Shown piece after piece: positions 20,700 through 63,807 of a stretch of 64,000 bases of DNA. Each line of letters begins with the position of its first letter. Position 1 is the first letter of the stretch. Origin of the DNA: Catajapyx aquilonaris (lineage: Eukaryota); NCBI GenBank assembly GCA_000934665.2, contig JYFJ02001686.1, forward strand, positions 1 to 64,000. The letters run 5' to 3'. The position numbers and the translations under genes are program-made. The notes under the pieces were generated by a model, which saw nothing but the letters and a program-made list of their open reading frames with translations, was not told the origin of the DNA and did not search any database.

Positions 20700-22461
20700 G
20701 AAAGCATGCTCAGTTGGCCACACATAGATTAGACTTATCAAGAAATTGGCTTTTGTTGCAAATTTTCTCCCCCACAAAAAAAAAAAATATCGGGTGTTCA
20801 CGCACCAATTGTTGGGTATATAGAGAGGACATAACAAATAAGACGGATGGATCAAATAAATAACAATTGCGTTTCTGGGGTGTATCACAGTGTAATTATA
20901 CAACTTATGTACAGCACAATGGCGGAAGAAAAAGAACTCACACAGTTCCATTGCAGTCTCGTAAAATCGACCCCGTCATAAATAATGCAGGATTAAAACA
21001 GTATTATGTATAAGAACGAGTTGAAAACGTTTGAAAAAAGAGGGTCCCTGGCAACAATTAGCCTAAGGAAAAAAAAACATAATCGTCAAAAAACCCCAAC
21101 GATTGTTATTTATCAGACCCCTTCCCTTCCCTCCAAAGTCTGTGTTTGTTTTTTTTTAATTTATTTTTTCGGTAGTTTCCAACCATCAGATGAAAACTGT
21201 GTGTGTACTTTATATAACAAGATTCACTTTTTTTTCCGGTGCGCATATTTACAAGTATTTCTTGACGCCACTTCTCACAAATAAACCCCGAAATCATACT
21301 TTTTTTGTTGTCCCGCCGTACAAAGTAGGGCTTTTGCAAGAAAATAAACATTAAAAAAAAAAGAAAATAGACAGCTCTGATAGACAAGAAAAAATCTTTT
21401 TGCTGAATATAATAGACCTACTCCTAAAAGTAGGGCCCATGATCAACTTTCTTTATAAAAACTAGAAATTCTAAAAATTATAAGTATGCTTAAAAGGTGG
21501 GAGCACAATTTGATCTCCGAATCAAAAAAAAAAAAAATATTGGGTTCAAATCATATCAACAAATTCCTGAGATAATACTTGGGATTGACGTAAAGAAACT
21601 TAATTGCAGATTTTCTTTTTTGTTCATTTTTTTAAAAACAAGAATTGCAAGTTTCTTAATGCCATAATTACAAGAGAGAAAAAAGCGAAAAAAATAGGAA
21701 CAAGAACAGATGTGCAAGAAAAAAAAATTGTCTTGGGCCTATATCGGACACAATCAGGACTATACATCTGGCGAATGGTTTTGGTTTGCTTTAAATGCAG
21801 TTTGTCTACTGATCGGGATTGAATTGGAACAAATACTTTATGTACAAACCTCACTAAATGCATGCCTTACAACAACACACACAGGATTTCACAAAAGGCA
21901 AGGGGGGGTGGGTGGGTGGAAATGGCCCATGAAACGCNGGGAGATGTCCGGAATTCATGATTCTTAATACTCATTTTTTTTATTAATTACGATAATTTTT
22001 TTTTTCAAATCGGGTGGATTCTGTTCGCGAACATCCTATTATAACATAGGGGCCTGAAAAAGGCGCTAAGTGTCTCGGGGGGGTGGGAATGCTCGATATG
22101 ACAGACTATCACGATTATAGAAGAGAGGTCTACACGAGGAATGTCACGTGACACTAGAACAAAAAGTTTATTATTATTATTATTATTTTTCTCTAGACGA
22201 AGATTTGTTGCGATACTGGGTGTAGTAAATGACGTCTATATAAGGAGAGCAGTCTGGTGGGGGGGTAAGTTTTGGAAGTAAAAGTTTTGGTATAGAATTT
22301 GCACTCGGGTGTCTTCTTCCTTTAGGTCTGTCATTGTTTCTTGTATAAGTTGGGGCGCGCTCCGGTCACACACACTATGGTACAATTTCTACAGGGAGAA
22401 GATGGGTGGGGGGATAGGAAAACAATGATTGATACAAGAGGGGGATGGTAAAAGAGAGGAT
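20700..22461 (-). other. Probable long U-rich 3' UTR of SoxN
   Basis: Strong strand asymmetry (plus-strand A-runs are U-runs in the mRNA). Minus-strand AATAAA at 22172-22167, 21984-21979 and 21165-21160. Contains UGUAHAUA elements and miRNA seed matches. The distal end is uncertain. Confidence 0.5.
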
Positions 22462-22779
22462 TCACAGCAGATGACTCTGTCCTTCGCAGCTAGGGTAGAG
22501 AGGATGAGTGACACGGGGAATGTTTGGCTGCTGGTGGTAATGATGAGGAGAGGTGGTCTGATGGGTAATGGTGTTGTTGGTAGCAGTGGCGGCGGCGGTG
22601 GTGGCGGCGGCGGCGGCCCCTTGTTGTTGGTCGTCGTCCTCGTCGTCGTCGTCCTCGTCTCGACTGGTTGGGGGCTGGCACCCGTACGGACCCTCAGGGG
22701 GCCACGTGACCCGGCAACAGTACTGCTGGTCGGTGCAACAACGCTGCTGGTGCTGGACTGTCCGGGCGAGTACGGAGTG
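22462..22779 (-). other. Candidate stop-codon readthrough extension of SoxN (105 in-frame codons plus second stop TGA)
   Basis: After TAA the frame stays open: HSVLARTVQHQQRCCTDQQYCCRVTWPPEGPYGCQPPTSRDEDDDDEDDDQQQGAAAAATTAAATATNNTITHQTTSPHHYHQQPNIPRVTHPLYPSCEGQSHLL*. The stop context is UAA-C, triplet repeats are in phase, and a structured RNA is predicted directly 3' of the stop. Confidence 0.6.
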
Positions 22780-24078
22780 TTACATGTGCGTTAAGGGCAT
22801 GGAGCTGGTCCCCATGGGGTCGGGCGAGCCGGTGTGGTACTGGGAATGGGAGTGCATCTGGAGCCGACTTTGAGCAGAGGGATCGGAGGCGTCGGTGGGA
22901 AGGTACATGGAGATCATCTGGCGGAGGTCACCCGCGTTGGTGTACTCGCGCTTGACGTTGCTGGTGGCCGCGGCCGAGAGACCAGGGGCCGGACTGGACG
23001 TCGGGATGCCGCTGGGGGAGACTGGGTGACCCTCCGACTTCATGCTGGTAGGGCTCGGAGACACCGTGCCTACCGACCCCACCGACCCGACTGACCCCAC
23101 AGACCCTACCGAACTCATCTGGGACGCTTGCATGGAATACGGCGATGAGCCCGTCGAGTACATACCGGTGTAGGTGGATCCGTTCATATAGTTCATGGTG
23201 GATCCCCCGGTCATGGAGGCGGCGTTGTGCATCTGCGTCATGTCGTACCGGGGGTACAGGCTGCCGTTGCCCGCCATGTGGCTGCTGTAGGCCGCCGCCG
23301 CCGTGTGCTGCGGGTACGCGTTGGGGTCGTGCATCATGGTCGGGTACCCGTTCGGCATGTACCCGTTCGGCATCTGGTACATCTCCCGCCCCACCTGCTG
23401 CACCGAGGTGCGCCCCGGGTCGGTTGGAAGCAGCCCACCGGCCAGGGGGTACTTGTCCTTCTTCATCAGCGTCTTCGTCTTGCGGCGGGGACGGTACTTG
23501 TAGTCAGGGTGCTCTTTCATGTGCACCGCCCTCAGCCTCTTGGCCTCGTCGATAAACGGCCGCTTCTCCGCCTCGGACAGAAGCTTCCACTCTGCCCCTA
23601 GTCGCTTGCTTATCTCAGAGTTGTGCATCTTGGGGTTCTCCTGGGCCATCTTGCGTCTCTGCCCCCTGGACCACACCATGAAGGCATTCATGGGCCTCTT
23701 GACCCGGTCCTGCTGATTCTTTTGGCTGTTGCTCTGGTTACCACCGCCGCCGCCTCCGCCTCCTCCGCCTCCACCACCTCCTCCGCCCCCGCCGCCGCCA
23801 CCTCCGCCTCCGCCCCCGGAACCTCCGCCCGGGGCATGCCCGTGCTGGTTGTGCCCTCCCTGCCCGTGGCCCCCAGATCCGGAGGTGGGTGGTGGTGCCT
23901 GCACCGACATCCCTTGCACCCCGTGCACGTTGGGCGGCTGTAGTGCTGCACTGTAGTGCTGGTGCACCTGGGCAGCCGCCGCAGCAGCCGCAGCAGCAGC
24001 CGCGGCCGCATGCGACGAATGCGGAGGCATGTTGGCGTGCAGGGAGCCCCCCTTCAAGTCCGACTCCATTGTCAGCAT
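22780..24078 (-). CDS. SoxN: SoxB1-group HMG-box transcription factor (SoxNeuro / Sox1-2-3 orthologue), single exon, 432 aa from the first ATG
   Basis: Contains a canonical group-B HMG box ([74 protein letters not shown], ~23709-23488) followed by the group-B motif [13 protein letters not shown]. SoxB1-type C-terminal motifs [12 protein letters not shown] and terminal PLTHM are present. The N-terminus MLTMESDLK resembles arthropod SoxN and vertebrate Sox2 (MYNMMETELK). The ORF-track start at 24324 is a GTG; the first in-frame ATG is 24078-24076 (context GCGGCCATGC). Intronless, as expected for SoxB genes. Confidence 0.96.
23740..23817 (-). repeat. Coding (GGN)26 poly-glycine tract just N-terminal to the HMG box
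   Basis: 78 nt of mixed Gly codons. The gene also has a 13-Ala tract at 23971-24009 and an SVG peptide repeat near 23065-23113. Confidence 0.9.
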
Positions 24079-24228
24079 GGCCGCTTCCGGGTGGTGGTAG
24101 CCGTACAGGTTGGCCGCAGCTGCAGCCGCAGCCGCCGCAGCCGCCGTTGACGACGACGCGACCTCGCCGCGGAACTCACGGGGGTACTGAGCCCTACTCA
24201 CCGAGCCGGTGGCCGCCGCTCCCGCCAG
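24079..24228 (-). other. Candidate non-AUG (CUG) initiated 50-aa N-terminal extension of SoxN
   Basis: In-frame and AUG-free. CTG at 24228-24226 in context TTCGCC-CTG-G. Encodes [29 protein letters not shown]11[11 protein letters not shown], and the 11 alanines use all four Ala codons. Confidence 0.5.
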
Positions 24229-24369
24229 GGCGAACTCTCGAGGTGCTATCCAAGCACCCACTTTTTCACACTGTACTTCAAAAGTCTGCTCTCTGCTACT
24301 ATACCACAGTTCCAGTCCGCACACTCACTCGGGGGTTCGGTTTGCTGCTGGTTGCTGCTAGGGGGTTGT

Positions 24370-63734: not shown

Positions 63735-63807
63735 GGCCCAGTGGCGCAACGGATAACGCGTCTGACTACGGATCAGAAGATTCCAGGTTCGAATCCTGGC
63801 TGGGTCG
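63735..63807 (+). tRNA. tRNA-Arg, anticodon ACG
   Basis: 73-nt GGCCCAGTGGCGCAACGGATAACGCGTCTGACTACGGATCAGAAGATTCCAGGTTCGAATCCTGGCTGGGTCG. Acceptor stem GGCCCAG/CTGGGTC, anticodon arm TCTGA-CTACGGA-TCAGA, T-arm CCAGG-TTCGAAT-CCTGG, intact A and B boxes, no encoded CCA. Confidence 0.97.

Follow-up and report, generated by a model that had tools for sequence, protein, structure and literature searches.

The SoxNeuro locus and its post-stop reading frame

The subject of this analysis is the SoxNeuro (SoxN) gene of Catajapyx aquilonaris, a SoxB1 gene on the minus strand of a 64,000-nucleotide (nt) stretch of contig JYFJ02001686.1 (the window), and in particular the reading frame that continues behind its stop codon as a candidate for stop-codon readthrough. 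The SoxN protein carries two Pfam domains, HMG_box (PF00505, 5.7e-28, residues 126-194) and SOXp (PF12336, 1.4e-22, residues 195-278). Its N-terminus is of the insect type, MLTME(S/T)DLKGGSLHA, which is common to the Periplaneta, Anabrus, Timema and Chrysoperla proteins and assigns the gene to the insects, and the motif P(L/S)(T/A)HM forms the C-terminal end in 14 of the 16 SoxN orthologues that we compared. The two exceptions are Timema doublecta, which has PLSHNM, and an Anabrus model that has no such motif; the last ~25 residues of the Anabrus simplex Sox-2 model resemble those of a mis-spliced or run-on gene model. The closest database protein to SoxN is only 65% identical to it, so we consider the species to be poorly sampled.

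An initial annotation, made from the letters of the window, had described the conserved PLTHM terminus as followed by TAA and C and then by 105 in-frame codons up to a TGA, and the sequence and its translation agree with this description exactly (Table 1). If the first stop were decoded, the product would have the length given there, 538 amino acids (aa), made up of 432 + 1 + 105 residues. The translation of the extension contains the acidic run DEDDDDEDDD, QQQ, an A/T-rich run and an H/Q/P-rich tail, and both of the peptides that the annotation had quoted. Tandem Repeats Finder (TRF) reports period-3 arrays at 22630-22659 (GAC/GAG) and at 22588-22617 (GCC/ACC). The change of composition that had been described past the second stop is also present: the GC fraction is 0.63-0.66 up to about position 22500 and about 0.40 from there on, and the T fraction rises from 0.14 to 0.28. 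No ATG, GTG or TTG opens the SoxN frame (frame 0) within the extension. On the minus strand AATAAA occurs at 22172, 21984 and 21165, at distances of 608, 796 and 1615 nt downstream of the TAA; the 3' untranslated region (UTR) is therefore probably at least 0.6 kb long, with the whole candidate extension inside it.

Table 1. Features of the SoxN locus, in positions of the window (CDS, coding sequence; ORF, open reading frame)
Feature	Position	Strand	Description	Basis
5' leader, internal control	24079-24324	minus	82 in-frame open codons, no ATG, in-phase (GCN)11 with varying third base	
SoxNeuro/SoxB1 CDS	24078..22783	minus	single ORF, 432 aa, C-terminus SSMPLTHM	translation and Pfam
First stop	22782-22780	minus	TAA, then C (22779) and A (22778)	sequence
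Candidate readthrough extension	22779-22465	minus	105 sense codons in the SoxN frame	translation
Hyper-conserved block	22689-22779	minus	directly behind the stop, extension codons 1-30	contigs of relatives
In-phase triplet arrays	22588-22659	minus	(GAC/GAG)10, (CAA)3 and a GCC/ACC run, which encode the acidic, Q and A/T runs	TRF and codon listing
Second stop	22464-22462	minus	TGA, point of composition shift	translation

Conservation around the first stop

We compared the region with contigs of three other organisms (X6, X8 and X9) and with one contig from an RNA library (X7). The comparison rests on the differences listed for each relative; positions 22572-22664 were masked as repeats, and the stretches 22528-22688 in X6 and 22500-22699 in X8 were compared by length only. 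Uncovered parts of the region, and the small shares of sampled words in X7-X9, were given no weight. By all the listed differences, the TAA, the C at +4 and the A at +5 are unchanged in X6 and X7, and X9, which spans the site, was not counted. The core of the region behind the stop, 22700-22740, is free of listed differences in all four relatives, and X8 shows 0 differences in 51 nt of the post-stop block. Over the 91 nt behind the stop X6 differs by 1 substitution and the deletion of a CAG; over 267 nt of CDS it differs by 10 listed substitutions. For X7, the 80 post-stop nt contain 1 listed substitution and an insertion of 6 nt, and the 264 nt of CDS contain 32 substitutions (Fisher p=0.002; were its 3 unlisted differences all located behind the stop, p=0.09). 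The CDS changes of X7 are coding-like, with 19 of them at third positions and 20/32 synonymous. Conservation is higher over the first ~90 nt past the stop than over the C-terminal CDS. The X7 contig is colinear from the CDS through the stop and into the extension, with no joint.

Inside the invariant block behind the stop lie two adjoining 21-nt units (22708-22749, minus strand), each beginning with CAGCAG and containing TGTTGC (QQRCCTD and QQYCCRV in translation). From their sequences these units look like an old in-frame tandem duplication, and they can pair as a G-U-rich hairpin whose stability does not exceed that of shuffled sequences (z -1.24). The palindromic E-box CACGTG lies inside the block at 22703-22708, by which a regulatory role of the block at the DNA level is also conceivable. 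It is the only regulatory motif that we found there; PRE, K-box, Brd-box, GY-box and CAR-YYA are absent from the conserved block.

Length changes up to and beyond the second stop

All the length differences that we saw in the extension, or spanning it, are multiples of three in X6, X7, X8 and X9. X6 has lost three nt (the CAG), has 155 nt in place of 161 across the masked repeats and lacks one CTG just before the TGA. The length in X8 changes from 200 to 188; X7 has gained 6 nt and, as read from a loose end, another 3 nt; and X9 is 21 nt longer overall. X6, which is the closest relative, keeps the TGA in phase, one CTG codon earlier than in the window. Past this TGA, a hand alignment of its 30-letter loose end shows indels of 1, 2 and 5 nt over a distance of about 31 nt. 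The initial annotation had proposed a search of related species for frame-preserving indels and a fixed second stop. The search came out in its favor with regard to the changes in threes, the TGA kept in X6 and the change to other indel lengths behind it, but most of the changes in threes are located in triplet repeats.

Post-stop frames of other SoxB1 loci

Our comparison set comprised 80 SoxB loci from metagenome contigs, 28 of which have a recognizable PL.H.-stop end. The post-stop frames of these 28 loci are 0-68 codons long (median 20) and none of them resembles the tail described here; among these 29 SoxB1 post-stop frames, the one of 105 codons is the longest. None of the 80 loci contains the conserved block, for which blastn matched triplet repeats only, and its 27-nt exact core had 0 matches in the metagenome contigs. 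In all four control groups, formed by related invertebrate SoxB1 loci that are not insect-like, an identity of 0.71-0.78 in the CDS gives way to one of 0.35-0.65 over nt 1-80 behind the stop; since all of them drop at the stop, the rise in conservation behind the stop of our SoxN gene is not a general habit of SoxB1 genes. One SoxB1 locus (L006:1217-1222) ends in two consecutive TAA codons, a tandem arrangement that is the reverse of what a leaky stop would call for.

A trio of cockroach/termite-like SoxN loci (L002:3913-3993, L003 and L004), with 83% identity to Periplaneta SoxN, has a 25-codon in-frame ORF behind a TAG that extends to a conserved TGA and is invariant except for one GAT/GAG site. 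The trio has 0 variable columns in the last 300 nt of the CDS and 1 in the 25-codon ORF; the 75 nt behind the ORF have 8, 1-nt indels among them, and the 225 nt after those have 32. The contrast between the ORF and the next 75 nt has a Fisher p of 0.03, and that with the next 300 nt a p of 0.0014. Judged by these alignments, the trio shows a boundary of constraint at the second stop in another insect lineage and is a possible second case of SoxN readthrough.

Relation to known readthrough genes

The published work drawn on here comprises a 2026 preprint (PMC13278127), the study of Jungreis 2016 (PMC5100048) and PMC8417969. The initial annotation had left open whether a SoxN orthologue was already annotated as a readthrough gene, and this is the case: Supplementary Table T3 of the preprint places Drosophila melanogaster SoxN (FBgn0029123) in tier 1, with a score of 13/15, a UGA stop and an extension of 567 nt (189 codons). 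Fly SoxN is predicted by 3/3 classifiers based on ribosome profiling (Ribo-seq) and has the entry Conserved_SCR=1, where the 'conserved SCR' set consists of the Jungreis 2016 list together with the FlyBase 'Stop-codon suppression' comments (PMC13278127). Supplemental Data S1 of PMC5100048, in its available part, lists Sox21a and Sox21b and not SoxN, and our literature search found no main-text discussion of SoxN readthrough.

Our candidate resembles fly SoxN in that the gene is orthologous, the stop lies directly behind a PL(A/T)HM end, a long ORF follows (189 codons in the fly and 105 here), the GC content at third codon positions (GC3) is lower in the extension than in the CDS (69.8 vs 77.7 in the fly and 69.5 vs 81.0 here), and the nucleotides just past the stop are conserved between species. 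The two differ in the stop context, which is UGA followed by G in the fly and UAA followed by C here. For the genes of tiers 1-2 the preprint reports conservation that peaks between -25 and +75 nt, a C at +4 followed by an A at +5, disordered tails rich in Q/E/D/G/A and GC3 periodicity (PMC13278127), and the peak around the stop, the C at +4 and the A at +5 are found here as well. The stop context contains neither CAR-YYA nor the reported G at +9, and the readthrough-enriched 8-mer CAGCAGCA has 0 copies here. Elements with UAA can be functional, as in unc80 with about 10% readthrough (PMC13278127).

Jungreis 2016 curated candidates by an ORF of >100 codons, indels that keep the frame, a C at +4, strong conservation of the nucleotides and frameshifts past the second stop (PMC5100048); our candidate has each of these features, as judged from the contigs compared. 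It shares with the abundant readthrough genes of insects, which include the SoxB2 genes Sox21a and Sox21b, the character of a neural or developmental transcription factor, the C past the stop, a low-complexity CAG-rich tail, frame-preserving indels and high post-stop nucleotide conservation (PMC5100048). Sox21a and Sox21b themselves differ from it in having UGA-C and extensions of only 19 and 16 codons (PMC5100048). As in Drosophila vvl/drifter (PMC8417969) and traffic jam (in PMC13278127), readthrough would lengthen a developmental transcription factor at its C-terminus, and the extension could alter the activity of the factor. These two cases are backed in vivo and by reporters, the fly SoxN call by Ribo-seq classifiers and our candidate by comparison of sequences.

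Readthrough extension or 3' untranslated region

The readings that we weighed differ in whether translation ends at the UAA and in how the sequence behind it came to be open. In the first of them this is an ordinary 3' UTR: the UAA ends translation, and behind it come a conserved non-coding element of ~90 nt, acting at the RNA or DNA level, and then GC-rich, T-poor triplet repeats that are free of stops by chance and change their length by threes as triplet repeats do. We regard this as a quite credible account, to which we assign somewhat less than an even chance, and the observations that follow speak for it and weigh against readthrough. When the 315 nt of the extension were shuffled, an in-frame stop was absent in 536/5000 dinucleotide and 383/5000 mononucleotide shuffles (8-11%). 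Three of the six frames are open over the 321-nt stretch, namely sense 0, sense +1 and one antisense frame, and the caveat of the initial annotation about open antisense frames holds; the sense +1 frame continues for 133 codons without a stop (22389..22790) and the antisense frame for 121 aa with a TTG start. Only 2 stop triplets occur in any phase in the 315 nt, and off-frame stop triplets are three times rarer in the extension (2/315 nt) than in the SoxN CDS (24/1296 nt). The open frame on its own is not beyond chance and carries almost no weight. The codon scores of the extension are -0.34, -0.55 and -0.78 in frames 0, 1 and 2, and the same score picked frame 0 in 19 of 20 held-out CDS segments. 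The non-repetitive codons 1-40 show no preference for frame 0 (-0.51, -0.48 and -0.55), on a score trained on 432 SoxN codons, none of them Cys, which penalizes the Cys-rich codons 1-40. The 5' leader that served as the non-coding control has, besides its GCN repeat, no frame-0 stop, a period-3 signal (chi-square p=0.007) and codon scores of -0.35, -0.51 and -0.90. Because the leader shows the same features as the extension, arguments from a single sequence fail to separate coding sequence from UTR. This applies to the in-phase repeats and the alternation at codon position 3 on which the initial annotation had drawn; both are real, as TRF confirms, but they do not discriminate as evidence for coding. 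The orthologues begin at MLTMESD, that is, downstream of the open leader, and the leader used as control may itself hold an N-terminal extension from a non-AUG start.

The comparisons between species add to the case for an ordinary 3' UTR. At the third positions of codons 1-27 there is 1 listed change where about 5.8 are expected from the CDS (Poisson p=0.02, worst case p=0.31), and such frozen synonymous sites imply constraint at the nucleotide level whatever the coding status. The listed differences place only 2 substitution sites in the extension, a synonymous one common to X7 and X9 and a non-synonymous one of X6, which are too few for a ratio of non-synonymous to synonymous rates (dN/dS). 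Past the conserved block X7 diverges roughly neutrally, with about 5-7 differences in 30 visible letters (about 3 third-position and 2 second-position changes); its remaining 188 nt were dropped by the aligner and are left out of the alignment. Of the six indel events, all but one are located in triplet repeats or in stretches that include them, where slippage by threes is expected without coding constraint. The region past the TGA is CT-rich and prone to slippage of 1-2 nt, and an insertion of X8 past the TGA is 54 nt long, also a multiple of three. The stop is a UAA, which is the least leaky of the stops, and TAA/TAG are the stops at which readthrough has been lost more often (PMC5100048), in line with the reservation that the initial annotation had made about this codon. 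The tail had 0 phmmer matches at E<=0.001 among 1.84 billion representative proteins, and the Pfam search of the extension gave no family above the cut-off, only sub-threshold low-complexity matches. Our search for longer SoxN-like proteins matched 30, none of which is a fly SoxN isoform or a readthrough isoform of a close relative. The 25-residue tail of the trio is unrelated to the extension here, the first 21 residues of the fly tail are dissimilar to it by eye, and the 28 other SoxB1 loci have no common tail. No stimulatory RNA structure was detected 3' of the stop (z=+1.32 over 131 nt; +0.53, +1.32, -1.24 and +0.55 in sub-stretches), and the invariance of the block makes a covariation test impossible. 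The z scores thus give no support to an RNA structure either as a stimulator of readthrough or as the cause of the conservation, and the block, if it promotes readthrough, would act as a linear element.

Conserved 3' UTR or non-coding elements flank SoxB1 genes, and the ~90-nt block, with its frozen 'synonymous' positions and no coding frame preference, is like them. Unlike the sequence studied here, such elements need not start at a stop, nor need they precede frame-preserving change that lasts until the next in-frame stop. An ordinary 3' UTR leaves unexplained why conservation abuts the stop and rises there while 4/4 control groups drop, why the sole indel outside triplet repeats (the 3-nt gain of X7) is also a multiple of three, and why the type and density of indels switch at the TGA in X6. 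It also leaves unexplained the depletion of A at third positions in frame 0, which equals that of the CDS (0.10 in the extension and 0.09 in the CDS; p=0.005 on non-repeat codons) and is absent in the 5' leader and in the downstream sequence, and it has to be set against the tier-1 status of the fly orthologue and the constraint boundary of the trio. The remaining readings have very little probability even when taken together. In one of them, which we think improbable, the region is coding without readthrough, either as an alternative 3' exon spliced from inside the SoxN ORF or as a small ORF in the +1 or antisense frame. The length of these two open frames and the several isoforms predicted for some crustacean SoxB1 genes are in its favor. 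The unbroken course of the X7 contig from CDS through stop to extension tells against this reading, as does the absence of a start codon in frame 0; the crustacean isoforms compared differ internally and all end in PL(T/A)HM, and the +1 and antisense peptides are runs of poly-P, poly-G and poly-V for which no family match was found, none having been sought. The other, in which the TAA arose by a recent nonsense mutation or through an error of assembly and the true C-terminus is that of the tail, has only the open frame to recommend it and is so improbable that we rejected it: the stop lies exactly behind PLTHM, where 14/16 orthologues and 28 metagenome loci end, X6 and X7 have the same TAA, and four runs of the source organism hold 0.88-0.97 of the sampled words.

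Taken together, we put the chances slightly better than even that the frame is a genuine stop-codon readthrough extension of SoxN, lineage-specific in its sequence. This reading is favored by the prior that the fly orthologue and the trio provide, the conserved TAA-CA, the conservation peak that abuts the stop, and change exclusively by threes up to the TGA with a breakdown past it. It is held back by the UAA, the confounding by repeats, the frozen synonymous sites and the lack of a frame signal in codons 1-40. The proposal of the initial annotation is partly supported, by the TAA-C kept in relatives, the indels in threes, the post-stop conservation and the fly orthologue, but not by the open frame, which is at chance level, nor by the repeats, which slip in threes, and the substitutions are too few to help it. 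If readthrough occurs, a minority of ribosomes would decode the SoxN UAA as a sense codon and go on to translate the 105 further codons to the UGA. The C at +4 and the A at +5 would help them in this, as would the conserved, unstructured stretch of ~90 nt that adjoins the stop on its 3' side. In the resulting isoform of 538 aa PLTHM would become internal, followed by a Cys/Gln-rich stretch and then by the acidic, Q, A/T and H/Q/P low-complexity runs.

A wider proposal is that SoxNeuro readthrough is an old insect-wide property in which the tail has been wholly replaced between orders, with UGA and 189 codons in Drosophila, UAG and 25 codons in the cockroach/termite-like loci and UAA and 105 codons here. 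We consider it a tentative idea, possible but rather doubtful. In this proposal selection would maintain the leakiness of the stop, a cis element of ~75-90 nt and the presence of some disordered tail behind a PLTHM that is thereby internal, and would keep no particular tail sequence or stop codon.

Implications of a possible SoxN extension

SoxN/SoxB1 is a core transcription factor of neural fate, and the PLTHM at its very C-terminus is a motif that bilaterians have conserved. A regulated isoform that hides PLTHM and adds an acidic disordered tail could, if real, alter partner binding, stability or condensate behavior in neural cells. Readthrough here would then affect a gene whose Drosophila orthologue is already listed for readthrough; the insect lineage and the stop would differ from those of the fly and the tail would be unrelated, and SoxN readthrough would extend beyond Diptera and to UAA, the stop thought to be least permissive. 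The three insect lineages would in that case form a natural series on what is selected, the tail sequence or merely a tail. If the reading is false, the locus is a warning that GC-rich triplet-repeat UTRs mimic nearly all the single-genome hallmarks of readthrough.

Other features of the window

Besides SoxN, we saw no other convincing long ORF within the 64-kb window. The sole Rfam family match in the 64 kb is a tRNA gene on the plus strand at 63735-63807 (RF00005, 60.6 bits).

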